A stretch of DNA of 64,000 bases from Patescibacteria group bacterium (GTDB taxonomy: Bacteria > Patescibacteriota > Minisyncoccia > Minisyncoccales > UBA10102): NCBI GenBank assembly GCA_022563395.1, contig JADFNM010000001.1, positions 398,342-462,341 of the forward strand, given 5' to 3'. The position numbers and the translations under genes are program-made. Numbering within the stretch: position 1 is the stretch's first letter; each line of letters opens with the position of its first letter. The notes beneath the pieces were generated by a model, which was given only the letters and a program-made list of their open reading frames with translations, ran no database searches and was not told the DNA's origin. This document shows positions 12,485 to 63,984 of the stretch, one piece after another.

Positions 12485-12485
12485 C

Positions 12486-14144: not shown

Positions 14145-14152
14145 GTTCTTAT

Positions 14153-14344
14153 TATACTTGACTCAAAGCTTACCAACAAGGGCATTGTCCACCGTTGGGG
14201 CTTCCTGGCAGTCCCGGGTTGTAATCCAGCTTGAGGGAACCTTTTTGTGAACCCGCAAACCAGTCCCCTTCTTCAAGCTGTATGTACACGCAATACAACT
14301 GGCTTGAACAATTGGTAGTCAATGTATTCACGTTGTCTATCCAG
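14153..14344. repeat. 192-bp segment identical to 53586-53777 (pilin 3' end + 17 nt downstream)
   Basis: Base-by-base comparison by eye found no mismatch. Identity stops abruptly at 14345/53778. Confidence 0.9.
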
Positions 14345-15912: not shown

Positions 15913-16013
15913 TTCTGTAATTCATTGATGCAACCATAGAACCCTTGGTGCTTTTCTTTGTGTGAATAATAAAGTTTGCAAACATAGATATAATAATCTC
16001 TAACGGGATTCAT

Positions 16014-17078
16014 TTAGTTTCTTGCCAGAGTTCTGAGTTCTGTTGGGTTCAAGGAGTAGGCAAGGGCATTTTCTAGGGTGATGGTCTTTGAACGAACCAA
16101 GTTTGCCAAGGCCCGGTTCAAAGAAATCATGCCAATTTCAGCAGACGTCTCAATCACCAGGGGAAGCTCGTGAATCTTGTTTTCTCGAATGAGGTTGGCT
16201 ACCGCAGGGTTGGACATCATGATTTCAGCTGCGGGAACCAACCCGCCCCGCACGCTGGGAACCAAGCGCTGAGATACCACGCCCAACAAAGAACCTGACA
16301 GCTGCGCCCTGACCTGAACCTGCTGCGCTGGAGGAAAAGAGTCCACAATGCGGTGAATGGTTTGGGCGGCAGAGTTGGTGTGCAGTGTGGCAAATACCAG
16401 GTGTCCGGTTTCAGCTGCGGTGATGGCGGTGGCTATGGTTTCTGAGTCTCGCATTTCCCCTACCATGATACAGTCTGGGTCTTGGCGGAAAGTGGCGCGC
16501 AAGGCCTTTTCAAAACTCTGGGTGTCCTGATACACCTCTCGCTGGTCAATAATCGACTTGTCGTCTTCAAACACGTACTCGATGGGGTCTTCAATAGTAA
16601 TGATGTGGTCGGCTCTTGTGTGGTTAATCTCGTCAATCAAGGCAGCTAGGGTGGTGGATTTCCCATGGCTGGAAGGACCGGTAATCAATACAAAACCCTG
16701 GCGTGCAGTGGCAAACTTATGAAGTATGGGAGGAAGGTTCAATTCTTCCAGCGTCTTTATCTGCTTTGGGATAAGGCGCAAGGCAGCAGACAAAGAACCC
16801 TGCTGGTAAAACACGTTTATTCGGAACCTGGCCTTATCCTCCATGTTGTACGAAAAGTCCACCTCTTTTTCCTGTTCCAAGCGTACTTTTTGTTCTTCGG
16901 TCATCAAGGAGGTGGCGAGTTCTCTAACGAGGTCTTGTGTCATGGGTCTCTTTTTGACCAAGGGAACCAAGCTCCCTGCAATTCGAAGGGTCGGAGGATG
17001 CCCCAAAGACAAATGTAAATCAGAAGCCGCTTCTTTTACAGTCAGTTCTAATAATTCCTGCATTTGTGTGGTTGGCAT
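16014..17078 (-). CDS. pilT: twitching-motility retraction ATPase
   Basis: 354 aa with Walker A (GPSSHGKSTT), the Asp box, Walker B (DPDCIMVGEMRD) and the His box (GHLVFATLHTNSA). Confidence 0.9.
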   Translation of the reverse strand: MPTTQMQELLELTVKEAASDLHLSLGHPPTLRIAGSLVPLVKKRPMTQDLVRELATSLMTEEQKVRLEQEKEVDFSYNMEDKARFRINVFYQQGSLSAALRLIPKQIKTLEELNLPPILHKFATARQGFVLITGPSSHGKSTTLAALIDEINHTRADHIITIEDPIEYVFEDDKSIIDQREVYQDTQSFEKALRATFRQDPDCIMVGEMRDSETIATAITAAETGHLVFATLHTNSAAQTIHRIVDSFPPAQQVQVRAQLSGSLLGVVSQRLVPSVRGGLVPAAEIMMSNPAVANLIRENKIHELPLVIETSAEIGMISLNRALANLVRSKTITLENALAYSLNPTELRTLARN

Positions 17079-17130
17079 ACAGTTACATTGTTAAATTGTT
17101 ATATGGCTAAATGGCTAACAATTAAACAAT

Positions 17131-17508
17131 TTAACCATTTAACAATTCTTTTACCTCCTCTACTACCTGGGTGGGGGTAAAGTGAGCTTTAATCAGGTAG
17201 CGGTCAGCGCCAAGAGAAATTCCTTTTTCAATCTCTTCTTTTTGCCCAAGGTTAGAGAGTACTACAATCTTTGTGTTCCGCAAGTTTTCTTGTTTTTGAG
17301 CGGCTAGAAGCAATTCCCAGCCGTCCACATGAGGAAGCACAATGTCCATGACAATGACCGAAGGGCTCAGCTTAGAAAACAAGGAAAGCGCCCTTTCTCC
17401 AGAATCTGCCACCTGCACCTTAAATCCAGCTTCTGTAAACTTTGTGGTGTAAATATCAATCAGCAAGGGGTCGTCTTCAACGAGTAAGATAGTATCTTTG
17501 GGGGACAT
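17131..17508 (-). CDS. stand-alone response-regulator receiver (CheY/PilH-like)
   Basis: 125 aa with ILLVEDDPLL, VIVMDIVLPHVDG and VVLSNLG. No output domain, and no histidine kinase in the window. Confidence 0.85.
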   Translation of the reverse strand: MSPKDTILLVEDDPLLIDIYTTKFTEAGFKVQVADSGERALSLFSKLSPSVIVMDIVLPHVDGWELLLAAQKQENLRNTKIVVLSNLGQKEEIEKGISLGADRYLIKAHFTPTQVVEEVKELLNG

Positions 17509-17509
17509 A

Positions 17510-19240
17510 TCAGTCTTCGGTCACGCGAATAACCTCCTCTATTGTTGTTATACCATCAATTGCCTTTAACACGCCATCCTGACGAAGCGTGACCATGCCC
17601 TGGCGCACTGCTTCTTTTGCAATGTTTGCTTCAGACGGAGTTTGAAGAACAATGTCTGAAAGCTCGTCGGTCATTGTAAGCACCTCAAAGAGACCAATCC
17701 TACCACTGTATCCTGCGGCTCCACATTCTTTGCATCCTTTGGCAACAAACAAACTCAGGTCTTTTCCTTTGGTTGCCAGGTGCACGCTCACGGATTTTTC
17801 TTTGGCAGCAGGAATCTTTCTGAGTTCTTGCAAGATGAGCTCTTTCATTTCCGTTTTTGGCTTGATGCGTTCCTTGCAATTATCGCACAAGCGTCTCACC
17901 AAACGTTGGGAAAGGGCAATGTTAAGCGTGGTTGGAACCAGGTACTTGTCCACTCCCATGTCCAAGAGACGAGGGATGACGCCAGAAGCATTGTTCGTAT
18001 GCAAGGTGGAAAGCACAATGTGCCCTGTTAAAGCAGCGTGCACAACAAGGGAGGCCGTCTCTTCGTCTCTAACCTCACCTACCATGATAACGTCTGGGTC
18101 TTGGCGCAGAACCTGGCGTAACCCTTGGGCAAAATCGTATTGAATATCGGGCCTAACCTGGGACTGGTTCACGCCTTCCAAAAGATACTCCACGGGGTCT
18201 TCCAAACTCACAATGTTCAAGGATTCCTTGTTAATACTCTGGAGCATGGCATACAGGGTGGTGGTTTTTCCAGAGCCCGTGGGCCCAGTCACCAAAATCA
18301 ACCCAAAGGGGCGTTTCAAAGCCGCTTGTGCTTTCTCTAAACTGGAACCTCCCAAACCAAGCTCGCCAAAACCCTTTAACCCCACTTCAGGGTCTAAAAC
18401 ACGTATGGCAACCTTTTCTCCTAGGGCAGTGGGAAAAGTGGAAACACGAAAGTCTATAGAGCGCTCTCCAATGTTTGCAGAAAATCTCCCATCCTGTGGT
18501 ACTCGCTGCTCATCAATCTTTAAGTTGGAAAGAATCTTAATGTGCGACACCACGGCTTGGTGAACCCGTTTTGGCAAGAATAAAGAGGAGTACAGGTCCC
18601 CCAGCATGCGAAACCTTACTCTGAGTTTGTCTTTGGTGGGTTCAATGTGAATGTCAGAGGCCTTCCCTTCAACCGCGTTTCTCAAGATGACTGCCACCAT
18701 CTTGGTGACCGGGGCCTCCTCCACCAAACGAGCGAGTTTTTGAGCTTGGTCCTTGCCCTTTTCTTCCTTCATCTCTTCTTGGAGTTCTCCTAAGGCCTGG
18801 CTCATATCGTTCTTTTGGTTTTGATAATGGCGCATGACTGCAGCAAACTGAGAAACAGAGATGAGCTGTATCTGAAACGAAAACCCTCCCTGGCGAGACA
18901 GGAAGTTCAGCGCCTCCTTTGCTTTTACGTCCTCCGGGGCTACCATACCAACCTCAACCACTCCTGCCCGCTTAGACAAGGGAACCATGCGATAGTGAGA
19001 TGCCGCATCCTCGGGGATAAGCTCAAGAATCTTTAAGGGAATGTCTTTGGGCTCAACAGATCTCAAAGGAACCTGCAGTCCCTCTGATTTAACGCTAAAC
19101 AAGAGCTCTTCTTCCACAAGCTTCTTTTCCAAGAGTACTTCCTCAACCAACTTTTGGGACCGAGTTGCCTCCTCTTGGACTTGGGTTGCGGCCTCGCTTA
19201 AAAGAAGATTTCTCTGAACAAGGGTTTGAAGAATGTTCAT
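17510..19240 (-). CDS. pilB: type IV pilus assembly ATPase (GspE/PilB family)
   Basis: 576 aa with an N-terminal T2SSE_N-like domain, Walker A (GPTGSGKTTT) and the CxxC..CxxC tetracysteine motif (CDNCK..CKECG). Confidence 0.9.
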   Translation of the reverse strand: MNILQTLVQRNLLLSEAATQVQEEATRSQKLVEEVLLEKKLVEEELLFSVKSEGLQVPLRSVEPKDIPLKILELIPEDAASHYRMVPLSKRAGVVEVGMVAPEDVKAKEALNFLSRQGGFSFQIQLISVSQFAAVMRHYQNQKNDMSQALGELQEEMKEEKGKDQAQKLARLVEEAPVTKMVAVILRNAVEGKASDIHIEPTKDKLRVRFRMLGDLYSSLFLPKRVHQAVVSHIKILSNLKIDEQRVPQDGRFSANIGERSIDFRVSTFPTALGEKVAIRVLDPEVGLKGFGELGLGGSSLEKAQAALKRPFGLILVTGPTGSGKTTTLYAMLQSINKESLNIVSLEDPVEYLLEGVNQSQVRPDIQYDFAQGLRQVLRQDPDVIMVGEVRDEETASLVVHAALTGHIVLSTLHTNNASGVIPRLLDMGVDKYLVPTTLNIALSQRLVRRLCDNCKERIKPKTEMKELILQELRKIPAAKEKSVSVHLATKGKDLSLFVAKGCKECGAAGYSGRIGLFEVLTMTDELSDIVLQTPSEANIAKEAVRQGMVTLRQDGVLKAIDGITTIEEVIRVTED

Positions 19241-25387: not shown

Positions 25388-25425
25388 CTTAAATTTCATT
25401 TAGGAGTTCCTAAATGGAATTTACG
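25388..25425. repeat. paired AT-type palindromes CTTAAATTTCATTTAGG-agtt-CCTAAATGGAATTTACG
   Basis: Same family as 30579-30617, 48523-48559 and others. Confidence 0.8.
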
Positions 25426-32218: not shown

Positions 32219-32743
32219 TTACGTTACAATGCTCCGCAAGATAGCGGGGAATCCTGCTGCCATCAAAGCAATGGCAATGCCAATTAAGGCATAGATGAGC
32301 TTTTGTCTTGCACCCGAAACTTGTGCAGGATCCCCTCCTCCAGTCACAAACTGGAAGGCAGCCAAGACAATGTAGATTAAAGATATTGCCAGAAACACGG
32401 CAAAGACCCAGTTGGCAATGATTTGAATACGAGCAAGTATTGCGCCACCAGATTGTGGCACTTCACTCTCTGTTCCAAGACGGAAATTAGCTGGGGGAAT
32501 TTCGCCCGTACCTGAATTACAATCAGCCTTTGTTGCGTACACGGCACTCTTTGAAGCTTTGCAATAATCGCCTGCTTTTGCAGCAACACCTCCACATTCG
32601 CAGTCCGCTGTAACCGCTGCCTCACAATTACCTCCACCTACTGTGCTACACTCCGCCGCAGCAAAAACTGTGGCTGGAGCCAATAAGATCAGTAAGAAAA
32701 CTGCAAGAAAGAAAGTGAGGCCAATAGTTTGTATTCTTTTCAT
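32219..32743 (-). CDS. TrbC/VirB2-like mini-pilin paralog 5 (signal peptide, Cys-rich ectodomain, two C-terminal TM helices)
   Basis: 174 aa. The C-terminus reads ANWVFAVFLAISLIYIVLAAFQFVTGGGDPAQVSGARQKLIYALIGIAIALMAAGFPAILRSIVT. Confidence 0.75.
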   Translation of the reverse strand: MKRIQTIGLTFFLAVFLLILLAPATVFAAAECSTVGGGNCEAAVTADCECGGVAAKAGDYCKASKSAVYATKADCNSGTGEIPPANFRLGTESEVPQSGGAILARIQIIANWVFAVFLAISLIYIVLAAFQFVTGGGDPAQVSGARQKLIYALIGIAIALMAAGFPAILRSIVT

Positions 32744-32747
32744 AGCT

Positions 32748-33179
32748 TTACGTCACAATGCTTCGGAGAATCGCAGGGAAACCGGCAGCCATTAAGGCAA
32801 TGGCAATTCCTATGAGAGCGTAGATTAACTTTTGGCGAGCTCCTGACACCTGGGCAGGATCCCCTCCTCCAGTCACAAACTGGAAGGCAGCCAAGAGAAT
32901 GTAGATTAAAGATATTGCCAGGAATATGGCAAAGACCCAGTTTGCGATAAGACCGATACGGCCAAGAATTTCTGAACCTGAACTAGGTGCCTCTTCGGTG
33001 GTTCCAAGGCGAAAGCTGGTATCTGGTAGTTTGCTCTCATTAACACAAAGTCCGCCGCTACAAATGAAGCCAGTGCCGCACTCAGCGTTTGTGGTGCAAC
33101 TGTCTCCCTCTACAGCAAACACAGCAACTGGAGAGAAAATGAGCACAAAAAGGAAGATTATTCCCAAAAGTATTTTCAT
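32748..33179 (-). CDS. TrbC/VirB2-like mini-pilin paralog 4
   Basis: 143 aa. The last 47 aa are identical to paralog 5, but the codons differ. Confidence 0.75.
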   Translation of the reverse strand: MKILLGIIFLFVLIFSPVAVFAVEGDSCTTNAECGTGFICSGGLCVNESKLPDTSFRLGTTEEAPSSGSEILGRIGLIANWVFAIFLAISLIYILLAAFQFVTGGGDPAQVSGARQKLIYALIGIAIALMAAGFPAILRSIVT

Positions 33180-33212
33180 ACTATTGCCAAATATGCGTTC
33201 AAACTCGGCCTC

Positions 33213-33632
33213 TTAGGTTAATATACTTCTTAGCACATCATCTACCCCGTTGGCAAGGAGGGCAAGCCCAATGCCAATAATGGCATAGAGGAGACGCCTC
33301 TTGGCAGAAGAGACCTTTTCTGGGTTTCCCTCACCTGTTACGAACTCAAACGCCCCCCAAACGAGAAAGATAATAGAAATTGCAAGAAAGATGGCAAAAA
33401 CCCATTCTCCAACCCGTTGAATAATCTGTAGGACAGCTCCTGCCGTCTGGGGACCCTCTGGTAATTCTGCCAAGCACTCATTACTTATACTGCATGTCAA
33501 TCCAGAGTTACACGTTCCTCCGGGTCCGCACGGCTCTCCGAGTCCCTGTGCAAACACAGACCCTCCTGCCAGTACAAAAATAAGGAGGGCTGTTCCAATC
33601 CCAAAAAGTAAAATATACCTTGCGGGTTTCAT
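33213..33632 (-). CDS. TrbC/VirB2-like mini-pilin paralog 3
   Basis: 139 aa with GEWVFAIFLAISIIFLVWGAFEFVTGEGNPEKVSSAKRRLLYAIIGIGLALL. Confidence 0.7.
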   Translation of the reverse strand: MKPARYILLFGIGTALLIFVLAGGSVFAQGLGEPCGPGGTCNSGLTCSISNECLAELPEGPQTAGAVLQIIQRVGEWVFAIFLAISIIFLVWGAFEFVTGEGNPEKVSSAKRRLLYAIIGIGLALLANGVDDVLRSILT

Positions 33633-33638
33633 TAAGCT

Positions 33639-33995
33639 TTATCCTACCAGAATATTCCTCAAAATATCGTCAAAACCTGCAGCCAAGAGAGCAATGGCAA
33701 TTCCTACTGCAGCATAAATGAGCTTTTGGCGCGCCGCAGTCACCTGGGCCGGGTCACCACCACCGGTCACAAACTGGAAGGCAGCCAAAATAATATAGAT
33801 GATTGACATTGCCAGGAAAATGGCAAAGACCCAATTGCCAATTAAGGCAATGCGGTCAAGCAGGTCAGCTCCCGTTTGTGGGCCTTCAGGAAGCCCATTG
33901 GTAGGGTGTTCTCCTCCATGAACAGCCATTGCTACCGGGGCTCCCACCATGACCAGCAGACTCACCGCTAGCATAATACCAAATACTATTTTCAT
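33639..33995 (-). CDS. TrbC/VirB2-like mini-pilin paralog 2 (no Cys-rich region)
   Basis: 118 aa with GNWVFAIFLAMSIIYIILAAFQFVTGGGDPAQVTAARQKLIYAAVGIAIALL. Confidence 0.7.
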   Translation of the reverse strand: MKIVFGIMLAVSLLVMVGAPVAMAVHGGEHPTNGLPEGPQTGADLLDRIALIGNWVFAIFLAMSIIYIILAAFQFVTGGGDPAQVTAARQKLIYAAVGIAIALLAAGFDDILRNILVG

Positions 33996-34027
33996 TCTTT
34001 TTGTTTATTGCTTCAATTATGTGAAAC

Positions 34028-34041
34028 CTCGACCTTTCTGT
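34028..34041 (-). promoter_or_regulatory. 14-nt motif ACAGAAAGGTCGAG, 32 nt upstream of the mini-pilin ATG
   Basis: It matches 12377-12390 exactly in sequence and in distance to the start codon. Confidence 0.4.
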
Positions 34042-34064
34042 ATCATAGCACCAAATGGGAATTG

Positions 34065-34502
34065 TTAAAACCCTATGATAGCCCGCAAGACCACAATCAG
34101 TCCTTTAGCCAGCAAGATAATCACAAATCCTACCGCAGTCCATAAAAGAATACGCTTGGCAGTAGAGATGCGCTCTGGGCTTCCTCCTGCCGTTACAAAC
34201 ATAATACCTGCCACCACTATCATAAGAGGGGTTAACAGCAAGGCAAAGTTAAAGAGAATGTCAAGAATGTTGTTTACAATACCAGTGAAGTTCTCGGTTT
34301 GAAGAGGATTGCAGATTTGAATCGTATCTTTTTCTTGGCACAGTCCCTGTGCTCCCTCCACAGCTCCCTGACAGACCAGATCTCCATCACAATTTGCATC
34401 CGTCTCACAAGCACCACACACCGGAGCAGCGTCTATTCTTTCAACAAAGCTTCCTCCAAACAAGAAAGCTATAAACACAACCAAAATCAGGGCCTTTTTC
34501 AT
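34065..34502 (-). CDS. TrbC/VirB2-like mini-pilin paralog 1 (most divergent)
   Basis: 145 aa with a signal peptide, a Cys-rich region (CGACETDANCDGDLVC) and LLLTPLMIVVAGIMFVTAGGSPERISTAKRILLWTAVGFVIILL. Confidence 0.65.
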   Translation of the reverse strand: MKKALILVVFIAFLFGGSFVERIDAAPVCGACETDANCDGDLVCQGAVEGAQGLCQEKDTIQICNPLQTENFTGIVNNILDILFNFALLLTPLMIVVAGIMFVTAGGSPERISTAKRILLWTAVGFVIILLAKGLIVVLRAIIGF

Positions 34503-41076: not shown

Positions 41077-41089
41077 ATCTGCATTATAT

Positions 41090-41131
41090 CCTTAATCTCG
41101 TTAAGTTATCCACACCTAAATTTCATTTAGG
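41090..41131. repeat. AT-type palindromes CCTTAATCTCGTTAAG .. CCTAAATTTCATTTAGG
   Basis: Same family. A further imperfect copy, CCTTAATTTCATTAGG, lies at 41184-41199. Confidence 0.8.
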
Positions 41132-41219
41132 CACACAGCGATAGGTTTAATTGTATTGCCTAAGCTTAGCTTGGTTTTCCACTCCTTAATTTCATTAGGG
41201 ATATATGCGGAGCGAGAGC

Positions 41220-46297: not shown

Positions 46298-46306
46298 CGG
46301 ATATTC

Positions 46307-46323
46307 CCTTAATGAAATTAAGG
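46307..46323. repeat. AT palindrome CCTTAATGAAATTAAGG
   Basis: It lies between the ftsH stop and tRNA-Ile. Identical copies occur at 58651-58667. Confidence 0.85.
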
Positions 46324-46327
46324 ATGA

Positions 46328-46400
46328 GGGCACGTAGCTCAATGGTTAGAGCACCAAGCTTATACCTTGGCGGTTCCTGGTTCGAGTCCAGGCGTGCCCA
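46328..46400 (+). tRNA. tRNA-Ile(TAT)
   Basis: Acceptor GGGCACG/CGTGCCC, anticodon arm CCAAG-CTTATAC-CTTGG (anticodon UAU), T-loop TTCGAGT. Confidence 0.85.
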
Positions 46401-46413
46401 CTAGTATAATCCT

Positions 46414-48513: not shown

Positions 48514-49080
48514 TCAATATCTCCTTAATGAGATTAAGGATTCCTTAATTTCATTAAGGAAAAATTGCTTTCTATGCAACACCGCAAGGGCAAGTTCGTA
48601 TGCTCCAACAAACACTCCGACAAAGAAGAGGTCTCCCAGTAGAGTATATTTCAAGAAGGGGAGACCCATTGTATAAGAAAGCATAAGACCTTCTAGGGTT
48701 GGGGCGTACAAAGGAGAAAAAGCCCACACGGCAAAGTTGGTGAAGAGATAAAAGAGAAACGATCCTGCCAGGGTTGCCAGTGTTATGGTTCCAAGGTTCT
48801 TTCTGCCTTTGATAAGCAGGCCAAAGATACCATAGAACAGAAAGCTTCCGTACACCACAAGCATTAACTTTACATCATAAAACCCAATGACAAGGTCAGC
48901 CAAAAACATCACGGCCAATGGGAGGACAAGGGCCCACCTGCTTTTTCTGGCAAGATATATGCCGGCAAACAAAGCCAAAGCACCTACCGGAGTAAAGTTT
49001 GGGGGGTGAGGAATCAGGCGCCCTGCCAAAGCAATTCCTAGGGCAGCCAACAAAAATCCAATAAGAAGATGCCGCTTCAT
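48514..49080 (-). CDS. polytopic membrane protein, DUF6580-like putative transporter (family assignment from memory)
   Basis: 188 aa with 5-6 TMs and N-terminal LIPHPPNFTPVGALALFAGIY. The last ~15 codons read through AT palindromes at 48523-48559. Confidence 0.55.
   Translation of the reverse strand: MKRHLLIGFLLAALGIALAGRLIPHPPNFTPVGALALFAGIYLARKSRWALVLPLAVMFLADLVIGFYDVKLMLVVYGSFLFYGIFGLLIKGRKNLGTITLATLAGSFLFYLFTNFAVWAFSPLYAPTLEGLMLSYTMGLPFLKYTLLGDLFFVGVFVGAYELALAVLHRKQFFLNEIKESLISLRRY
48523..48559. repeat. paired AT palindromes CCTTAATGAGATTAAGG-att-CCTTAATTTCATTAAGG
   Basis: They overlap the 3' coding end of ORF 48514-49080. Confidence 0.85.
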
Positions 49081-53585: not shown

Positions 53586-53777
53586 TATACTTGACTCAAA
53601 GCTTACCAACAAGGGCATTGTCCACCGTTGGGGCTTCCTGGCAGTCCCGGGTTGTAATCCAGCTTGAGGGAACCTTTTTGTGAACCCGCAAACCAGTCCC
53701 CTTCTTCAAGCTGTATGTACACGCAATACAACTGGCTTGAACAATTGGTAGTCAATGTATTCACGTTGTCTATCCAG
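53586..53777. repeat. 192-bp segment identical to 14153-14344
   Basis: See 14153-14344. It covers the last 58 codons plus stop of ORF 53603-55081 and 17 nt downstream. Confidence 0.9.
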
Positions 53778-55081
53778 GCATACGAACCTCCCCCTTGAGG
53801 ATCTGTGGGGACGGGATCTAAATACTTGCCATCACCTATACCATTGCAGGATGGAGGATTGGTACAGGGAATCTTTGAAGGAAGAGAGGATCCTGCAACC
53901 TGGGAATACATCTGATCATCCGAATAATCCAGCTCCATTGCAAGGGTAATTTGACGAATGTCAGCCTGACGCCTGGCATCGCGTGTCGTTTCTCTTGCCA
54001 AATTGAGACTCAAATCAGATTGGCTGCGTGCGTCGCGCGTCGTTTCTCCTGCCGAATTGAGACTCCAAAAAAGGGTTGAAAGAATTATGGCAAGGATAAT
54101 CAAAATTCCAAGAATTCCAAGAATTCCAAGAATTCCGATAATAATAAAAGTTGCCTTCTTTCTTCTGGTTGGCGTAAAAACAACCTCTCCTTTTACGGCT
54201 TTTAGATTGCTATACACTAAAAACGCATAAGTCATTGTCAATGGGGTCAAAAACAATCCAATAACAATACGACTAATTTCCTCCCCGAAAGGAATCTTCA
54301 GAAAGCTAAAAATAAGAATTGGAACTAAAGAAATTATAAAAGATATTACGCCGATAAAAAAGAAACGCCAAAATACACTACCCCATTTACCTTTTACATA
54401 CTCACGACTCTTTAATAGAGCGTTCATTCCTTTTAGGTCTTCTGCAATTAAAACAAACACTGCCAAACTAAACCAGACAGCAAAAATAATTCCGGGCACA
54501 ATCAAAAGAAAAAATCCACCAAGAGTAATAAATCCTACTAACAAAGAAACCCACCAGTAGGAAAATATTTTGTGCCATCCCCGCCGATACGACTCCATTA
54601 CTCCAATCCTCTCTTGACTATCTTTCACAGCATACAGTAACGCTATTTGCCCCCATACTTGGCTAATAAAAGTAATTACAAAAAATAAAATAGCCAAAAG
54701 AATAAGCAAGCCAATGCCACCAGCAGCAAATTTTGAAAAAAGTAGACTAGTACCCAAAAGTCCACCGCCGGCAGAAATAGCGAGGACCGCTATTGATACT
54801 AACATCGGAATTACCATCACACCCAAAAATGTGCCAAGCCTTTGTTTATATATAGTCCATGCTTGGCCAAAAATCGCTGTAGCACCCGGTAAAGAAGAAA
54901 TGGTTTGCGCTGGCGGCGGGGCTGGTTGCGATTGGTTAGTAGGATTTTCTATAAGAGAAAAAGCCTCATCAATATCTTGCATCTGCCAACCATTAGCCAT
55001 TAGAGAACTTTTAATTTGTTCTTTGTTCGCTCCTTGTTGTAGCTGTTGCTTGATATAATCAAGCAATTGTTGATTAATCAT
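53603..55081 (-). CDS. chimeric polytopic membrane protein with C-terminal type IV pilin head domain (no prepilin cleavage site)
   Basis: 492 aa. The order is an N-terminal helical domain (MINQQLLDYIKQQLQQGANKEQIKSSLMANGW), about 7 TMs, duplicated ETTRDAR(S/R)Q linkers, then a ~125-aa domain colinear with pilin 14170-14661. Confidence 0.8.
   Translation of the reverse strand: MINQQLLDYIKQQLQQGANKEQIKSSLMANGWQMQDIDEAFSLIENPTNQSQPAPPPAQTISSLPGATAIFGQAWTIYKQRLGTFLGVMVIPMLVSIAVLAISAGGGLLGTSLLFSKFAAGGIGLLILLAILFFVITFISQVWGQIALLYAVKDSQERIGVMESYRRGWHKIFSYWWVSLLVGFITLGGFFLLIVPGIIFAVWFSLAVFVLIAEDLKGMNALLKSREYVKGKWGSVFWRFFFIGVISFIISLVPILIFSFLKIPFGEEISRIVIGLFLTPLTMTYAFLVYSNLKAVKGEVVFTPTRRKKATFIIIGILGILGILGILIILAIILSTLFWSLNSAGETTRDARSQSDLSLNLARETTRDARRQADIRQITLAMELDYSDDQMYSQVAGSSLPSKIPCTNPPSCNGIGDGKYLDPVPTDPQGGGSYAWIDNVNTLTTNCSSQLYCVYIQLEEGDWFAGSQKGSLKLDYNPGLPGSPNGGQCPCW
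54104..54139. repeat. 9-bp tandem repeat AATTCCAAG x3 (+1 partial) encoding (GIL)n in the last TM helix
   Basis: aattccaag aattccaag aattccaag aattccgat. Any length change would stay in frame. Confidence 0.85.
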
Positions 55082-57731: not shown

Positions 57732-57790
57732 CCACCTTCGCGGTCTGGCGGACTTTGTCCGCCAAAGCTCGCTACGGCGGGCGAAGGCGG
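57732..57790. repeat. GC-rich hairpin element abutting the 3' end of tRNA-Ser(CGA)
   Basis: CCACCTTCGC..GGCGGAC-ttt-GTCCGCC-AAAGCT..CTACGGCGGGCGAAGGCGG. The words are shared with 48302-48401 and with the valS inserts. Confidence 0.7.
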
Positions 57791-57870
57791 AGGGTGCAGG
57801 ATTCGAACCTGCAAGGGATTGCTCCCAATGGTTTTCGGGACCATCGCAATAGCCGTTCTGCCAACCCTCC
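57788..57870 (-). tRNA. tRNA-Ser(CGA) (putative; C at position 33)
   Basis: Acceptor GGAGGGT/ACCCTCC, anticodon arm ATGGT-CCCGAAA-ACCAT, long variable arm, T-loop TTCGAAT. Confidence 0.75.
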
Positions 57871-57875
57871 TTTTG

Positions 57876-57948
57876 TGGACCGTACCGGGCTCGAACCGGT
57901 GACCTCCTCGATGCCATCGAGGCACGCTACCAACTGCGCCAACGGCCC
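57876..57948 (-). tRNA. tRNA-Ala(GGC)
   Basis: G3:U70 in the acceptor (GGGCCGT/ACGGTCC). Anticodon arm CCTCG-ATGGCAT-CGAGG. Confidence 0.9.
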
Positions 57949-57961
57949 ATACTCTTTTGTG

Positions 57962-58033
57962 TGCCCCCGGGAGGAATCGAACCTCCATCGGCTCGTTAGG
58001 AGTGAGCTACTCTATCCGTTGAGCTACGGGGGC
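57962..58033 (-). tRNA. tRNA-Arg(CCT)
   Basis: Acceptor GCCCCCG/CGGGGGC, anticodon loop CTCCTAA, T arm GGAGG-TTCGATT-CCTCC. Confidence 0.85.
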
Positions 58034-58238
58034 CAAAAGCAGCAATAATGCAAATCCCGAGCCTACCTTAATTTTACCCTTAAAATATAGCACAAAATGC
58101 TCTCTTTTACAACCTTTGCTCTCCTGTGCAAAACCTCAGTTGACAGAGTTTTTAGGGCAGATAATAATGATATTTATAATAAAGAAAAGGTCGGAAAAGA
58201 ACACTTTTCTTGTCTTAAAATTCATTTCTACACAAAGT

Positions 58239-58415
58239 ATGTTAATAGACCAAAAACTCAACAATCAATTCCCTTCGTTTGAAGATAACGAAAACACGGA
58301 GATCCCCTTGGAAGAACCGGGGAGCGGTTCTTTTGAAGATGTAGATGACGAGGAAGAGGATGACGATGACGATGACGATGACGACGTAGAAGACGACTCG
58401 GAAAAAAAGGAGTAA
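58239..58415 (+). CDS. small hyper-acidic protein (hypothetical)
   Basis: From the internal ATG: MLIDQKLNNQFPSFEDNENTEIPLEEPGSGSFEDVDDEEEDDDDDDDDDVEDDSEKKE (58 aa). Confidence 0.35.
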   Translation: MLIDQKLNNQFPSFEDNENTEIPLEEPGSGSFEDVDDEEEDDDDDDDDDVEDDSEKKE

Positions 58416-58641
58416 AAAAAACGGTTCTGCAATCCTTTCAAGAGAATATTGGTTTCATGGTCTTGTTCAATGAGCTAACCTTTTGTATCAACCACCTTTT
58501 GCAAGGTTGTAATCATATCATTTTTCGCAGAGAGCAAATCTGAGGATTCTTCCTTCTCTTCGTGGTCATGCTCTCATGGAAGTTCCTTTTTGGAGGAGCT
58601 TCCTTTTTCTTATTATATCTGCCTAAAAACACATAAAAGTC

Positions 58642-58860
58642 CGCATATCGCCTTAATGAAATTAAGGATTCCTTAATTTCATTTAGGAACTATTCGAGTG
58701 TTTGAACTGGGGTCCCACTCCACAGCTTATTATAACCTTAGAGGACTGGAAATATATGTCTATTATGCGAGAAAAACTCCTGGAAATCAAAGCGTTGTGC
58801 CCAACCTAACTCCCCAGTCCAAAGCTTATTATACTTTTAGAAGATACAGAATATATGGCT
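58642..58860 (+). repeat. 219-bp direct repeat, left copy (AT palindromes + two promoter/RBS/micro-ORF units)
   Basis: It aligns without indels to 60042-60260 at a constant 1400-bp offset, and is roughly nine-tenths identical by eye. Confidence 0.9.
58756..58809 (+). CDS. micro-ORF L1, MSIMREKLLEIKALCPT
   Basis: Preceded by TATAAC..AGAGGA-N10-ATG. Compared with R1 there are 5 synonymous and 0 nonsynonymous differences across REKLLEIK. Confidence 0.45.
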   Translation: MSIMREKLLEIKALCPT

Positions 58861-58893
58861 GGTTTAAAGCAGAATTTATTGCAATTGACTTAA
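58855..58893 (+). CDS. micro-ORF L2, MAGLKQNLLQLT
   Basis: Same upstream unit (TATACT..AGAAGA..ATG). The body lies outside the repeat. Confidence 0.25.
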   Translation: MAGLKQNLLQLT

Positions 58894-58926
58894 CCTCGGA
58901 ATCCACCCTCCCATAGAAGACATAAA

Positions 58927-59955
58927 TTACGTAAAGAAATCACGCTTGGTTTCGTCTGAATTAAACCCCGAAAAACCACCTTCTTTGATAGAAAACATTT
59001 CCCCATGTGTCGATATGCTCTTTTTCACTTTTCTAACGACTTTCTCAGCGTTCTCTGCTGTATCTGCTACAACCAATGCCTTATACCCCATTTTGGGTAA
59101 ATTATTCTTTAAGATTTCCAGCAACAGTGGATCGCCAGCACTCCACCCGATAATCAGGACTCTATCTATGTTTGGAAGAACACGCTCAAGTGTTTGGATA
59201 TGACTTAACGGACATATATAATCATCTTTCTCGTTCAATGGAAGTGCAAGAGCAGGAAATTTAAGGAATTCTCGACTGCCAGTATTTTTACGAGCAAATT
59301 CTTGTTTATGGTAGGGCGCTATCTTTTCTTTCCGCAGATTCTCAAGAAGTCCGGGATTTTCAAGATACAACTGAAAATTGGTTTTTCGTTCTTCGCTACT
59401 AGATGCAAAACTATCCCTTGGTAAGGCATATATCCAATCATGAGAACCATGCAATTTAATCACTTTCAGATCACCCTCTACATAGTCTTTCATCGCTTGG
59501 GGTGGCCCGCCCGGAATATTGCGTTCAAATAACGTATCGTAGTTAAATGTCACTATACATGCCTTGCCGTCCGCATAAGTATCTATGCTATTAATAAGGT
59601 CTCTATAATTATTTATACTATGCATTCTTTTTTTTCTAGGAACACCAGCGTCAACTGAAATAGTCTCAAATAATACCTGTAGATAAAATTCTAATGCGGC
59701 AAAATGAGAACGCATCCGAGAGGAATGACTTGATTGTTTTTTTAACTCAGTTAGTACTTCTTCAAAGCTACGCTTCTTCCCCTTTACCTGTTGAATAACA
59801 CTAGAAAGCAAAGACCCAGCCCCAGGATACCTATCTAAAAGTTCAGGGTTAAGAAACTCATCATCAGTTAAATGTATGGTCAAAGGACCAACTTTCCCCA
59901 GAGGAGAGTAATCATATGATGCACCTGCACCGAAAATAATAAGTGGATACGCCAT
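58927..59955 (-). CDS. stand-alone SIR2-like (SIR2_2-type) domain protein, predicted NAD-consuming enzyme
   Basis: MAYPLIIFGAGASYDY, VTFNYDTLFE, VIKLHGSHDW and VLIIGWSAGDP. The start is trimmed to ATG 59955 because the longer track ORF reads through hairpin 59967-59998. Confidence 0.75.
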   Translation of the reverse strand: MAYPLIIFGAGASYDYSPLGKVGPLTIHLTDDEFLNPELLDRYPGAGSLLSSVIQQVKGKKRSFEEVLTELKKQSSHSSRMRSHFAALEFYLQVLFETISVDAGVPRKKRMHSINNYRDLINSIDTYADGKACIVTFNYDTLFERNIPGGPPQAMKDYVEGDLKVIKLHGSHDWIYALPRDSFASSSEERKTNFQLYLENPGLLENLRKEKIAPYHKQEFARKNTGSREFLKFPALALPLNEKDDYICPLSHIQTLERVLPNIDRVLIIGWSAGDPLLLEILKNNLPKMGYKALVVADTAENAEKVVRKVKKSISTHGEMFSIKEGGFSGFNSDETKRDFFT

Positions 59956-59966
59956 GTCAGATAGTC

Positions 59967-59998
59967 TACCAAAAAACCGCCTCAAAGGCGATTCTTTG
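59967..59998. repeat. conserved hairpin junction element, copy 1 (TACCAAAAAACCGCC-tcaaa-GGCGATTCTTTG)
   Basis: Its flanks are nearly identical to those at 61836-61867 and 62577-62607, and the loops differ. Confidence 0.8.
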
Positions 59999-60009
59999 AT
60001 TGAACATAT

Positions 60010-60026
60010 CCTAAATCTCGTTTAGG
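60010..60026. repeat. AT palindrome CCTAAATCTCGTTTAGG
   Basis: Same word as at 30581-30596 and 27797-27813. Confidence 0.85.
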
Positions 60027-60041
60027 AACTAATGATTCTGA

Positions 60042-60260
60042 CGCATATCGCCTAAATGAAATTAAGGAATCCTTAATTTCATTTAGGAACTATTCGAGTG
60101 TTTGAACTGGGGTCCCAGTCCAAAGCTTATTATAACTTTAGAGGACTGGAAATATATGGCTGGCATGAGAGAGAAACTCTTGGAGATTAAAGTGTTGTGC
60201 CCAAGATAGCTCCCCAGTCCAAGGCTTATTATACTTTTAGAGGATGCGGAGTATATGGCT
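60042..60260 (+). repeat. 219-bp direct repeat, right copy
   Basis: See 58642-58860. Confidence 0.9.
60156..60209 (+). CDS. micro-ORF R1, MAGMREKLLEIKVLCPR
   Basis: Same frame and length as L1. The stop is TAG versus TAA. Confidence 0.45.
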   Translation: MAGMREKLLEIKVLCPR

Positions 60261-60299
60261 AGTATCAGGGAAAAGCTTCAATATGTTGCTAGTTTTTAG
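60255..60299 (+). CDS. micro-ORF R2, MASIREKLQYVASF
   Basis: It shares M-x-x-[MI]-R-E-K-L with L1 and R1, and ends 81 nt before the methyltransferase ATG. Confidence 0.3.
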   Translation: MASIREKLQYVASF

Positions 60300-60380
60300 C
60301 CTTAGAACTTAAAGGAAAACAGGTATTCTGCTCAGAAGTATCCGCAAGAAAGCGAAATAGCAATATGCTACAATAAATCA

Positions 60381-61217
60381 ATGAATAAGAAGTTTGAAGA
60401 GATAAAAAAGAAAGTTGGGATTCCTTATTTTGAGGATGAAAACTTTTTACTGTTCAACCAAGATGCCATTGCATCCTTAGAAAAACTAACCTCTCGGATA
60501 TTTGATCTAACTGTAACAAGTCCTCCTTATAATATAGGTAAAGAGTATGAGAAGATTAGGGGGCTAAAAAACTATATAGCTTGGTCTCATCAATGGATAA
60601 AAGCTGTCTATGAATGTACTAAACCCCAGGGGTCTTTCTGGCTTAATCTTGGATACCTTGATATGAATAATAAGGCAAAAGCTATCCCCATTATATATCT
60701 TTTGTGGGAGCACATTCCTTTCTACTTAATTCAAGAAGTCATCTGGCACTATGAAGCAGGGGTTACTGCAAAAAAGTTCCTTGCTCCAAGGAATGAAAAA
60801 TTCCTCTGGTACGTAAAAGACGCCAGATCCTATACTTTCAATCTTGATAATATTAGAGATCCAAACGTTAAATATCCCAACCAAAAAAAGAATGGGAAAT
60901 TACGATGTAATCCGTTTGGAAAAAATCCTGGAGACGTTTGGGATTTTCCAAAAGTTACTTCTGGAGACAAGCGTAGTTCCAAAGAACGCACAAAACATCC
61001 TGCTCAATTCCCAATCGCAATTATAGACCGTATCCTTAAAGCATCTTCTAACAAAGGGGATTTTGTACTAGATCCCTTTATTGGTTCAGGTACTACCGCT
61101 GAATGTGCGTTAAGAAACGGACGAAAAGTGGTTGGTTTTGAAATAAAAAAAAGCTATTGCGATATCGCTATAGATAGATATAAGTCTGCAAAAGATAAGC
61201 TCAAAAAAACTATCTAG
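60381..61217 (+). CDS. DNA methyltransferase, beta-class N4-cytosine/N6-adenine (SPPY)
   Basis: DLTVTSPPYNIGKEY (motif IV) precedes FVLDPFIGSGTTAECA (motif I). Confidence 0.85.
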   Translation: MNKKFEEIKKKVGIPYFEDENFLLFNQDAIASLEKLTSRIFDLTVTSPPYNIGKEYEKIRGLKNYIAWSHQWIKAVYECTKPQGSFWLNLGYLDMNNKAKAIPIIYLLWEHIPFYLIQEVIWHYEAGVTAKKFLAPRNEKFLWYVKDARSYTFNLDNIRDPNVKYPNQKKNGKLRCNPFGKNPGDVWDFPKVTSGDKRSSKERTKHPAQFPIAIIDRILKASSNKGDFVLDPFIGSGTTAECALRNGRKVVGFEIKKSYCDIAIDRYKSAKDKLKKTI

Positions 61218-61792
61218 AGTAAGTTTAAAAGCTTAAACTTCATAGCTTCTACGCTGAGCCTAGATTGCTGCCCTGTAGGGGCTTTTTGTGCTATCCAATC
61301 AGAATGCTCAATCCATCCAAATCTTATCTTCGTTATTTGAGGTAACTCTTGCTGTACTTTCTTGTCAAAATTTATGACGAGATAATATCCTTCTTTGGAC
61401 TTTTGAGTACCTTCTGTTGCCTCTTGACCATAACTCCGGTTTCCATACACTCCACTATTACTTGAAGATGTCTTAATCTCAAAAGAATAATCATCATTAG
61501 AAAAATATACCATATCCTTTTCCTTTTTAGATTTTCCAATTCGCCAAGCACTAGGATCTTTTTTTTGCAAATTATAGGCAATAAGAATATGCAAAAAATT
61601 GCCTATCATCTGAGGAGTAAGATTAATGTCCTTCCCTATCTGAAGAACTCCTCCTATCTTGCTCTTAAAAATCTGCTCCCACGATTTAAGACAAACTTCA
61701 AGAATGCCTTCCTTATCTAAAGGATGCTCTTCAACTAATTTTTCAGTAATAGCTAACCAATCCTTTGGCTGTTTTTTAGTATATGGATTCAC
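61214..61792 (-). CDS. putative type II restriction endonuclease (PD-(D/E)XK-like)
   Basis: 192 aa, convergent with the MTase and overlapping it by 4 nt. It carries a candidate D..E-x-K motif (DDYSFEIKTS). No family name assigned. Confidence 0.5.
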   Translation of the reverse strand: MNPYTKKQPKDWLAITEKLVEEHPLDKEGILEVCLKSWEQIFKSKIGGVLQIGKDINLTPQMIGNFLHILIAYNLQKKDPSAWRIGKSKKEKDMVYFSNDDYSFEIKTSSSNSGVYGNRSYGQEATEGTQKSKEGYYLVINFDKKVQQELPQITKIRFGWIEHSDWIAQKAPTGQQSRLSVEAMKFKLLNLL

Positions 61793-61875: not shown

Positions 61876-62061
61876 CTAACTTTTTAATTCTTCTAGCTCT
61901 AAATTGAAGTTGCAGTAAAATTTCTTGGAGCACTTATTGCATACAAAACACCTATCTGGCTCTGTAACCATTAAGATTCCGCCACATGCATAGTTTTCGT
62001 CTTCAGAATTTCCGCTACCAGGACACTGAGTAGCTCCGTATTTTTTAATCCACTCATCCAT
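61876..62061 (-). CDS. small zinc-ribbon protein (hypothetical)
   Basis: 61 aa with CPGSG..CGG..CFVCNKC (four Cys in two knuckles). Confidence 0.5.
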   Translation of the reverse strand: MDEWIKKYGATQCPGSGNSEDENYACGGILMVTEPDRCFVCNKCSKKFYCNFNLELEELKS

Positions 62062-62068
62062 AATAATT

Positions 62069-62566
62069 TTACTTACAAGTCCCGTGCGATACTAAGGTAT
62101 CCAAACCAAATCCAACTGTCTCAATATACTTGTTATCAAGTGATAACTTTATCGAAAAGGCTCTTGCCTCTATTGGTTCTAAAATAGTAAACAACCCGCT
62201 TTCATTGCTTACAACATTATAACTATCACACGGCTTATTGTCGCACCTGTATACTATACTATTGTTCTCGTCATATAAAATAAACACCGTTGGCTTTACT
62301 GGCTTGCAACCTGTCTCACTACATTGTTGCTTTGTCTCTGGCAAACATATTTTAGTATAAAGCGGTAGTTGATAAGAGAGAGCAGATACATCAATATCAA
62401 ATGTTAAACCACCTTTAACCCCACCTAAAAACTCATCAACTTCTTCGTTGACCCCTTCTTTTCCTGTTTGTGGCTGGCTCTGTTGTGATGTATACCAATA
62501 AAAACCAACTCCTAAAACTACCAAACCGATACCGATGATATATTTGTATTCCTTGAGTTTTTCCAT
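62069..62566 (-). CDS. membrane-anchored hypothetical protein
   Basis: 165 aa with TM IIGIGLVVLGVGFYWY and a Cys-containing ectodomain. Confidence 0.55.
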   Translation of the reverse strand: MEKLKEYKYIIGIGLVVLGVGFYWYTSQQSQPQTGKEGVNEEVDEFLGGVKGGLTFDIDVSALSYQLPLYTKICLPETKQQCSETGCKPVKPTVFILYDENNSIVYRCDNKPCDSYNVVSNESGLFTILEPIEARAFSIKLSLDNKYIETVGFGLDTLVSHGTCK

Positions 62567-62576
62567 ATCCCAATTC

Positions 62577-62607
62577 TACCAAAAAACCGCCTGTCTGGCA
62601 ATTCTTT
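62577..62607 (-). terminator. conserved hairpin junction element, copy 3
   Basis: The minus strand reads AAAGAATTGCC-agaca-GGCGGTTTTTTGGTA, 10 nt upstream of ATG 62566. Confidence 0.5.
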
Positions 62608-62719
62608 AAAAAGTATAATAAGGCCAATCACTTCCCCCTATGGGACACGTTTAGAACTTTAGATTGGAAACAAATTATACAGGAATTACTGAGTTAGAAT
62701 ATGACCATTACCTCAAAAT

Positions 62720-63274
62720 TCAGTTGATTATTTTTACTTGCCTTAACCTTGCCCCTTGCATATGAGGTATATCAAGTGATGCATTAAGATCTTCAACGTC
62801 TTCTTTTTTTAACGAGAAGCTGACTTTCTTACATATGTTACTATCTTCTCCCATCCCCTTATTAGACCATCCTGAGATACTGAAATCATATCTTCCCTCA
62901 ACCCATTTAAATGTATCTGATGAAATAAATTCTATACCCTGAAAGGCGCTACTTTTAGCTAATACAGCTATTGATGTTGGAAGCTGTTCAAGCTCACTGC
63001 TTACAGCTTTTAATCTATAGAAAACATTCCACACATACGTATACTGCTTATTACCAGGAATATCTAAAGTAGCCGCAAGTTTATTTACTACTAACAGTTT
63101 ATTCGTAGAATTAGTAAAATTAAAATTAATCTGTATTTTATTTCTCGCTGCATAAACTATCTGTAAACTATCACCGACAAAGATCTTAAGCTTCGCTGGT
63201 AAAATATAATCTTTCAGGAGAATAAATCCAGAGATAAGTAATGCGGCTAATGATATGATTATAGATATGTCCAT
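62720..63274 (-). CDS. membrane-anchored hypothetical protein
   Basis: 184 aa with N-terminal TM ISIIISLAALLISGFILL and a beta-rich remainder. Confidence 0.55.
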   Translation of the reverse strand: MDISIIISLAALLISGFILLKDYILPAKLKIFVGDSLQIVYAARNKIQINFNFTNSTNKLLVVNKLAATLDIPGNKQYTYVWNVFYRLKAVSSELEQLPTSIAVLAKSSAFQGIEFISSDTFKWVEGRYDFSISGWSNKGMGEDSNICKKVSFSLKKEDVEDLNASLDIPHMQGARLRQVKIIN

Positions 63275-63342
63275 TTGTATAGATAGAAGAGATTTTTACT
63301 GGTTAGCTCTATCTTAGACGGTGTTAAACGCATGTTTAACTA

Positions 63343-63984
63343 CTACGTAACTTTTATGGAATCGTGGGGAATCGCAATTAGACAATCTGAGTCGGGCATT
63401 GGGTTATTGTCTTTTACTACAGCAATATGTAAACGCCTCAACTCCTGCTCTGGAAATTGAACAAGGTATTGCTTACCAACTCGAGCATTCACAATCGTGT
63501 CCATAATAGGTTTCATTTCCCCCTCTTCAGTTTTTCCTTCAAAAGAAAAAACTATCGCTACCTGATCCTTTAATTCTGGGTGGTCAATAATAATATCCTC
63601 ATTTGAAGGTTTGATAGATTTTAAAGATTCTTGATTTCTTATTATAACAGTAAATAAATTCCTAGTAATAGGCATCTCGACAAGATAAAAACTCCGGTCT
63701 ATTGATCCATCTTTGATTTCTCTCTTAAGCTCTATTTTGTTATCCTTAAATTTAAAAGAAATCTCTATACTTTCCCCATCTTCAACTTTTTTCACAGTAT
63801 GTGGCTGTTCAAAATCTAATTTCTCTAGACCACCATAATGTTTTTTCCATGTCCTTACCGGACTTATTTTGTTTTTAAAGGAACACTTAAAACTATATCT
63901 TCCTTGGGAATCAATAAGATATAATAAATCGGCTAGATGCAAATTTTTATTTAAGATTATTCGTTTCTTAAAAAGTGGCTTCAT
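63343..63984 (-). CDS. hypothetical protein
   Basis: 213-aa ORF, AT-rich, with no recognisable motif. Confidence 0.5.
   Translation of the reverse strand: MKPLFKKRIILNKNLHLADLLYLIDSQGRYSFKCSFKNKISPVRTWKKHYGGLEKLDFEQPHTVKKVEDGESIEISFKFKDNKIELKREIKDGSIDRSFYLVEMPITRNLFTVIIRNQESLKSIKPSNEDIIIDHPELKDQVAIVFSFEGKTEEGEMKPIMDTIVNARVGKQYLVQFPEQELRRLHIAVVKDNNPMPDSDCLIAIPHDSIKVT

Follow-up and report, generated by a model that had tools for sequence, protein, structure and literature searches.

A stand-alone SIR2-like gene beside a restriction-modification system in a Patescibacteria genome: a candidate single-gene NAD+-consuming defence enzyme from a large uncharacterised family

For the SIRim clade of SIR2 proteins, to which AbiH and PD-T7-2 belong as single proteins, a 12-fold enrichment in the vicinity of defence systems was found; non-immune sirtuins fall in the other clade of the published phylogeny (bioRxiv 10.1101/2024.09.18.613514). 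SIRim proteins are recognised by a sheet of at least seven strands and by the lack of a zinc-binding Cys4 module (bioRxiv 10.1101/2024.09.18.613514; PMC12700824). AbiH is a single-gene, sirtuin-like abortive-infection protein (PMC13064643; bioRxiv 10.1101/2024.09.18.613514), and FAM118B is a stand-alone SIR2_2 protein (PMC12700824). The present text concerns a gene for a SIR2-like protein of 342 amino acids (aa) in a stretch of 64,000 nucleotides (nt) from a Patescibacteria group bacterium (contig JADFNM010000001.1), in the following called the window. In a first-pass annotation of this DNA, a bare SIR2 protein was regarded as a configuration different from all described systems, as these were thought to pair the SIR2 domain with a sensor or partner in every case. 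This premise is wrong, since lactococcal AbiH, human FAM118, and the single-gene candidates of PADLOC are precedents. The bare configuration is already known; the novelty lies in the family, a very large and uncharacterised one of minimal SIR2 proteins, of which the window provides a clear example from Patescibacteria in surroundings of the defence type. The gene is read here, with a probability of roughly 0.55, as a single-gene defence enzyme of the SIRim type that would consume nicotinamide adenine dinucleotide (NAD+), most likely as an NADase acting by abortive infection.

The open reading frame (ORF) extends to position 59985 via a TTG start (58927-59985, minus strand, 352 aa), and the start codon equivalent to the ATG at 59955 is used by the homologues in the family alignment, which supports the length of 342 aa. 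All four strings by which the fold had been recognised are present, namely IIFGAGAS (residues 6-13), TFNYDTLFE (136-144), KLHGSHDW (167-174), and LIIGWSAGDP (267-276). The protein gives a partial match to Pfam SIR2_2 (PF13289; 26.7 bits at a gathering cut-off of 24.5) and weak matches to the generic SIR2 and Aga_SIR2 models of PADLOC. NCBIfam holds no family for it, PHROGs yielded no match for it or for the other island genes scanned, and a PDB search with the single sequence returned noise only. An AlphaFold2 model built on 113 homologues (predicted local distance difference test score 94.7, predicted template modelling score 0.93) consists of one SIR2 domain at residues 4-341, in line with the earlier statement that no partner domain is present in the protein. 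The strands of its Rossmann sheet lie at residues 4-8, 132-136, 163-167, 170-179, 230-236, 265-269, 292-296, and 321-324, and the fold carries a helical insertion at 37-127 and a second insertion at 180-229. In a Foldseek comparison with the PDB, the SIR2 subunits of E. coli SIR2-HerA/Nezha rank first (8sub, 8uae, 8j4u; E 5e-7 to 2e-6, 13-16% identity), followed by the canonical sirtuins SIRT2, Sir2Af, and CobB (E ~2e-5 to 1e-4). A family profile run against the PDB sequences finds the SIR2 protein of another SIR2-HerA system (8w9l, E 2e-6).

The family alignment shows the motif GAGAS (9-13), the triplet F137-N138-Y139, and the residues K167, G170, and W174 to be invariant, and D140 and H169 to be kept in at least 90% of the members. 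GAGAS forms the NAD-binding loop and N138, D140, and H169 the catalytic Asn/Asp/His set, all of which are intact in the window protein. A conserved loop, FPALA-P..K....CP..H, spans residues 233-252. As C248 is the only conserved cysteine, the family has no Cys4 zinc module, and the SIR2 profile combined with a zinc ribbon that marks canonical sirtuins was not found. SIR2_2 is matched by 110 of the 113 members, and the SIR2 and Aga_SIR2 models of PADLOC by 50-88 of them. Affiliation with a housekeeping sirtuin clade was looked for by profile search, and the 113 members match 11 Pfam families, of which none is a canonical sirtuin family. Because at least seven strands and the missing zinc site agree with the published description, the protein, as modelled, is of the SIR2_2/SIRim type and not a housekeeping sirtuin. 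The defence-associated type of fold proposed from the motifs is thereby borne out.

A first homologue search gave 613 matches, and among the 120 listed most are ~330-370 aa long. An exhaustive profile search returned 6,153 cluster representatives (clusters at 50% identity) at E<=1e-3, of which 2,003 reached E<=1e-30; nearly all of the best 150 are full-length matches with 320-370 aa. The closest relatives (40-55% identity) belong to Patescibacteria, and further ones to Acidobacteriota, Chloroflexota, Actinomycetota, Bacteroidota, Nitrospira, and others. When one genome each from 185,579 species was scanned, at least 96 relatives were confirmed, a rare and taxonomically scattered occurrence. 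No dedicated model for the family exists in Pfam, NCBIfam, or PADLOC, and a Foldseek search of viral structures returned canonical sirtuins only. Members of the AT-rich Bacteroidota type (L013, L024, L042, L061, L065, L068, L069, L072, L075, L084, and L085) carry an extra N-terminal region of ~100 aa (e.g. ...YEFRFYYGE.KYGILAED...) absent from the Patescibacteria proteins, which could be a sensor or localisation module.

For the search for partners, ORFs were called at ~80 genome loci, and three genes on each side were compared all against all by BLAST; no recurring partner emerged. Among the families listed for 50 close same-strand neighbours searched with Pfam and PADLOC, none matches more than one neighbour. 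Since the best matches are full-length at this size and no neighbour is conserved, a bare SIR2 protein of ~340 aa is the normal state of the family. For the window itself, the claim that the gene has no partner was upheld, as no HerA, TIR, Ago, or comparable ATPase was found within the 64 kb. The defence-type neighbours of homologues comprise components of type I and type IIG restriction-modification (R-M) systems, a PDC-S56 candidate, and a NERD nuclease. Ten contexts from Patescibacteria, this window included, were inspected (Table 1), and they are suggestive of an association of the family with defence or mobile genes. At one of these loci, in a Paceibacterota genome represented by L004 and L006, a gene for an ABC ATPase of 521 aa (6433-7998) is followed after a gap of 2 nt by a 49%-identical SIR2-like gene (8001-9029). 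The ATPase matches AAA_15/AAA_21/SMC_N as well as the PADLOC models AriAB (E 2e-35) and PtuA (E 7e-26), and the pair may constitute a two-gene ATPase-SIR2 system.

The gene stands alone beside an R-M pair, as had been noticed from the sequence, and lies in a variable region of foreign composition. The GC content drops directly after the tRNA-Ser/Ala/Arg cluster, from ~0.43-0.49 in the preceding core region to 0.32-0.40 from ~58000 to the window end. The adjacency to an R-M system is real, with a methyltransferase of the N6_N4_Mtase family and an endonuclease of the RE_ScaI family to the right. The opposite orientation of the SIR2-like gene relative to its neighbours was likewise confirmed: it is divergent from the methylase gene and convergent with the gene for the acidic protein (58116-58415). 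The contigs L093 and L096 share synteny with the window in IF2, DUF4446, the tRNA cluster, and the acidic protein, and carry different cargo at the SIR2 site, namely a 156-aa helix-turn-helix (HTH)/excisionase-like gene, the palindrome described below, genes for proteins of 108 and 76 aa, and a single copy of a micro-ORF unit, with no SIR2 gene. The locus is therefore polymorphic for the presence or absence of SIR2. The HTH/excisionase-like gene is intact in L093 (4790-5260), and its protein has a weak excisionase match in PHROGs. In the window, the corresponding fragment contains no ORF of at least 40 aa and marks an earlier turnover of cargo at this site. In L092, the same tRNA-Ala and tRNA-Arg(cct) genes are directly followed by one unit and ham1, and a tRNA-His/tRNA-Arg(tct) pair closes the region in L092 and L093. 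From these arrangements it follows that, in this lineage, a variable hot spot lies between the tRNA-Ser/Ala/Arg and the tRNA-His/Arg(tct) clusters, with the unit as its resident.

Table 1. Coordinates of the features at the SIR2 locus, and related loci on other contigs (positions are those of the window unless a contig is named).
Feature	Position or contig	Strand	Remarks
SIR2-like gene	58927-59955	-	342 aa from ATG at 59955; Pfam SIR2_2, AlphaFold2, Foldseek, family alignment
Type II DNA methyltransferase, N6_N4_Mtase	60381-61217	+	Pfam E 2.3e-60; PADLOC MTase_II E 4e-65
Type II restriction endonuclease, ScaI family	61214-61792	-	Pfam RE_ScaI E 7.4e-68; PADLOC REase_II E 6.6e-68
Small protein with extremely acidic poly-D/E C-terminal tail	58116-58415	+	Counterpart at the same position, L093:4598-4741
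tRNA-Ser/Ala/Arg cluster	57786-58033	-	Left edge of the variable low-GC region
HTH/excisionase-like gene remnant	58480-58627	-	blastn, 76% identity over 151 nt to L093:4939-5085
Left direct-repeat copy	58642-58874	+	233 nt: palindrome, unit 1L, start of unit 2L
Right direct-repeat copy	60042-60274	+	233 nt
Palindromic terminator-like hairpin, left copy	58642-58696	.	27-nt arms
Palindromic hairpin, right copy	60042-60096	.	Further partial copy at 60008-60031
Micro-ORF 1L	58756-58809	+	MSIMREKLLEIKALCPT; preceded by invariant block AAGCTTATTATAAC.TTAGAGGA
Micro-ORF 2L	58855-58893	+	MAGLKQNLLQLT; degenerate copy; directed into the SIR2 3' end
Micro-ORF 1R	60156-60209	+	MAGMREKLLEIKVLCPR; unit 86-88% identical to the L092 and L093 units
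Micro-ORF 2R	60255-60299	+	MASIREKLQYVASF; 81 nt upstream of the methylase start
Micro-ORF unit elsewhere	L092:850-951; L093:6172-6272; L098:1621-1700; L100; L099; L097; L095
Homologue context: adjacent R-M system	This window; L088		L088: type III, serine recombinase next door
Homologue context: AriA/PtuA-like ABC ATPase	L004		Ends 2 nt before the gene
Homologue context: serine recombinase	L001, L004, L088		<=8 kb away
Homologue context: adjacent PemK toxin	L103
Homologue context: prophage-like run of small genes	L106
Homologue context: no recognisable defence or mobile gene	L104, L105, L107, L108

The gene had also been described as a cassette installed between direct repeats. The repeats are real: two copies of 233 nt, 1400 nt apart and 88% identical, enclose the SIR2-like gene and no other gene, and a 27-nt core of the repeat unit occurs four times in the window (0.00 expected). 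Each copy is made up of a palindrome followed by two tandem copies of a unit of ~99 nt. They are, however, copies of a resident chromosomal element, which related genomes carry without a SIR2 gene. At eight other homologue loci no comparable flanking repeats were found, although at one of them a terminator-like hairpin of 40 nt lies on either side, and the repeat matches no other SIR2 locus save contigs from other samples with the identical gene arrangement. Repeats of the attachment-site (att) type that recur with the gene in company of a recombinase, as in a mobile gene cassette, were not observed; no recombinase was detected in the window, which holds the visible part of an island that continues beyond the window end at 64000. 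For these reasons (a resident element without SIR2, no counterpart at the eight loci), the idea that the repeats are att sites belonging to a SIR2 cassette was rejected as a general property. Insertion by recombination, also part of the first-pass annotation, is plausible at this locus only, with no recombinase visible and eight loci devoid of such repeats. In this genome, the block of palindrome and two units is duplicated with the SIR2 gene between the copies, and a reasonable account would be that the gene arrived by recombination involving the resident palindrome and micro-ORF element. The 12% divergence of the two copies argues against a recent duplication. In two independent assemblies with the identical gene, the contig breaks ~120 nt past the stop codon of the gene and within the left repeat, as is to be expected where DNA is repeated.

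The palindrome of ~55 nt (AATGAAATTAAGGAWTCCTTAATTTCATT core) is dispersed in the window, with further copies at 48517-48561, 46298-46325, 41183-41209, 41088-41134, and 25392-25421, typically where a gene or tRNA ends, and probably represents a generic bidirectional terminator of this genome or a hairpin resembling repetitive extragenic palindromes. The unit pairs extend over 58706-58905 and 60106-60300, with 2L and 2R as degenerate copies. The invariant block of the unit, AAGCTTATTATAA(C/T)TTTAGA(G/A)GA, contains a -10-like and a Shine-Dalgarno-like element at a fixed distance to the ATG; the unit consensus is written AAGCTTATTATAAyTTTAGArGA and is followed by a micro-ORF of 12-25 codons. A metagenome scan with a 21-nt core detected the unit on eight contigs (seven distinct loci), several of them unrelated, with ~71-88% similarity over ~70-100 nt. 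Each of the eight encodes a micro-ORF starting with MxxM(R/K)EKL(L/I/V)EI(K/R) and ending in a variable tail. At the seven other loci the unit and the next gene face each other tail-to-tail, the stop codon of that gene being a few tens of nucleotides away, and no SIR2 gene is present in the seven other unit-bearing contigs. The scan matches L091, L094, L101, and L102 were dismissed as chance 21-mers without extended similarity.

Across codons 4-12 of nine unit copies, pairwise differences number 81/42/138 at codon positions 1/2/3, synonymous codon differences exceed non-synonymous ones (118 vs 71), and five Leu codons are used at codon 8. A conserved RNA structure was rejected (consensus -1.25 kcal/mol, essentially no covariation), as was a longer protein covering the conserved region 5' of the micro-ORF, since several copies have a stop directly before it and no upstream start. 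Because of the coding-like substitution pattern and the lack of a conserved RNA structure, the unit looks like a small expressed gene, and not like an RNA or an att site. The left-hand unit pair aims at the 3' end of the SIR2 gene, and the 33 nt that separate the two contain no terminator. A promoter scan revealed no convincing promoter of the SIR2 gene, the counts being equal to those of shuffled sequence.

To the right of the R-M pair, four further island genes (61876-63984, minus strand) encode a Cys-rich, zinc-ribbon-like protein of 61 aa and three larger ones of 165, 184, and 213 aa; these three match nothing in Pfam or PADLOC, and PHROGs gave no match for any of the four. The window shows no avoidance of the ScaI site (AGTACT), with 12 sites at 8.5 expected, a count that is uninformative on R-M activity. 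An Rfam match to P9 within 58000-60500 lies below threshold (21.5 bits vs 43, E 0.12) and was taken as chance. The remaining part of the window has a core gene content of the Patescibacteria type, and its other 55 proteins yielded no second defence system. Several features of this part are recorded here in their own right. The segment 53364-55257 is an insertion relative to syntenic L093, which passes straight from a 3D-domain gene to tRNA-Leu; its ORF 53603-55081 (minus strand) encodes a membrane protein of 492 aa in which the segment ARETTRDAR(S/R)Q is repeated and whose C-terminal part is pilin-like. Five tandem type IV pilin-like genes with a common start sequence and a shared AR(A/D)ARR..D(I/V)RQ motif (11832-14661) adjoin PilB/PilT/PilC-like genes (14674-19240). 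A run of five small signal-peptide proteins of 118-174 aa, at least four of them cysteine-rich, is encoded at 32219-34502 (minus strand). A tRNA-Ile with the anticodon TAT (UAU) lies at 46328-46401; such a tRNA is uncommon in bacteria, where AUA is usually read by a lysidine-modified CAU tRNA.

If the gene is a defence enzyme, the protein would be inactive in uninfected cells and be turned on by a phage cue, probably through a change of its oligomeric state, as in ThsA, Avs5, the SIR2 proteins of SIR2-HerA, and FAM118B. Sensing would have to be accomplished by family-specific parts of the same polypeptide, with the insertions 37-127 and 180-229 and the loop 233-252 as candidates, and the active enzyme would use up NAD+ and thereby halt the infected cell. 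NADase chemistry, an abortive-infection outcome, and activation gated by oligomerisation are inferred from these four relatives (PMC12700824) and from the 12-fold enrichment of SIRim (bioRxiv 10.1101/2024.09.18.613514). The fold, the intact active site, a solitary build kept through thousands of lineages, the foreign composition, and the presence or absence of the gene at a hot spot next to an R-M system are observed directly. Several observations weigh against this proposal. The 342-aa protein has no extra domain for the sensing of infection, scores only 22 bits against the defence SIR2 models of PADLOC, and reaches a template modelling score of only ~0.5 to the best PDB folds, the SIR2 proteins of SIR2-HerA. 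Some neighbours of homologues are housekeeping genes (LepA, CoA-transferase, SDR), four of the ten Patescibacteria contexts have no recognisable defence or mobile gene nearby, and tblastn against sequenced plasmids and phages found no homologue.

It is unlikely, judged on the same evidence, that the protein is a non-immune NAD-dependent enzyme, e.g. an ADP-ribosyltransferase acting on proteins or small molecules, a deacylase, or an enzyme of NAD salvage or regulation, with the R-M system next to it by coincidence. Housekeeping or metal-resistance genes are the only neighbours at several homologue loci, the catalytic residues are common to the family and deacylases, and SIRT2, Sir2Af, and CobB are significant fold matches. 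However, no member of the alignment carries the Cys4 module or matches a canonical sirtuin family, and in the published tree the non-immune sirtuins belong to the other clade (bioRxiv 10.1101/2024.09.18.613514). The scattered occurrence of the family, the absence of the gene from L093, the low GC content, and the variable flanks also argue against a core function. Rather improbable, too, is an effector half of a multi-component system with its partner encoded elsewhere, or a toxin with an unrecognised antitoxin. An ABC/SMC-type ATPase as in L004 could be the partner, and the closest solved relatives do need HerA; the pairing with an ATPase is seen in one of ~80 loci, though, and no such ATPase, HerA, TIR, or Ago was found in the window. 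As a brake, antisense transcription, the micro-ORF peptides, or coupling to the R-M system could serve. The left promoter units do face the 3' end of the gene across a gap free of terminators, but the unit occurs in seven other contigs without SIR2 and at no other SIR2 locus, and the R-M adjacency is not conserved across homologues.

A decaying, non-functional passenger gene in a region scrambled by recombination would fit the gene remnant and the degenerate units 2L and 2R nearby. Such decay is nevertheless highly improbable for an ORF that is full length compared to its homologues (100% coverage), keeps every invariant residue of the family, and is 100% identical in assemblies from other samples. 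The defence enzyme is the preferred reading. A bolder version of it is speculative and very doubtful: the ~340-aa family, widely distributed among soil phyla and ultra-small Patescibacteria, would be an autonomous sensor and effector NADase and thus the smallest known immune module of the SIR2 type, and would here be restrained by cis-antisense transcription from the duplicated, strongly conserved promoter/micro-ORF unit, an undescribed micro-gene of 12-25 codons, firing into its 3' end.

The known immune repertoire of Patescibacteria is small, and the gene, if it defends, would add a non-R-M defence to it. A family that defends alone would provide a very compact model for the switching of a SIR2 NADase without a separate sensor, a question that applies equally to AbiH and human FAM118. 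Annotation of the family (~2,000 clusters at 50% identity, E<=1e-30) would label many 'hypothetical proteins'.

Among the described SIR2 systems, Thoeris ThsA, DSR1/DSR2, SPARSA, and Avs5 share the SIR2_2/SIRim catalytic domain with its GAGxS, N/D, and H residues and act as NAD+-depleting abortive defences. In contrast to the window protein, they carry their sensor or are paired with it (SLOG plus ThsB, a large C-terminal domain, pAgo, and a STAND NTPase, respectively), and none of these partners was found in the window. The 342-aa protein has no SLOG fusion as in type I Thoeris, and no TIR/ThsB match was found in the window. DSR1/DSR2 proteins have ~1000 aa with a C-terminal sensor, and only three of the 113 family members match the Dsr2 model, all weakly. 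The Aga_SIR2 models of SPARSA/SIR2-pAgo match via the SIR2 core only, and the window contains no Argonaute. Effectors coupled to ABC ATPases (PARIS/Septu/AbiL-like) have a parallel solely at L004/L006, where an AAA_15/AAA_21 ATPase is adjacent, and none is encoded here. Vertebrate FAM118B/FAM118A (SIRanc/SIRal) are stand-alone SIR2_2 proteins without a zinc module as well, in which assembly into filaments or hetero-oligomers gates the processing of NAD (PMC12700824). They form a eukaryotic, vertebrate-specific clade, are absent from the top 50 fold matches, and are comparable at the superfamily level.

The SIR2 proteins of SIR2-HerA (Nezha/Gao_Her; 8sub, 8uae, 8j4u, 8w9l) resemble the window protein as single-domain NADase effectors without a zinc module, with 380-415 aa. 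They differ in working as dodecamers that bind a HerA ATPase from the adjacent gene and are activated by it, and HerA was found neither in the window nor among the families listed for the 50 neighbours of homologues. AbiH of Lactococcus lactis (PF14253) is, as the window protein, the product of a single gene without partner, of similar size, with a SIRim fold, located in mobile or variable DNA, and presumed to abort infection by NAD depletion. AbiH is 346 aa long. The two belong to different sequence families: the window protein has no AbiH match in Pfam or PADLOC at E<=0.1, and three of the 113 family members match the AbiH model weakly (E ~1e-3). The window protein is a member of neither group; its closest known counterpart is AbiH by architecture and the SIR2 subunits of SIR2-HerA by structure and sequence.

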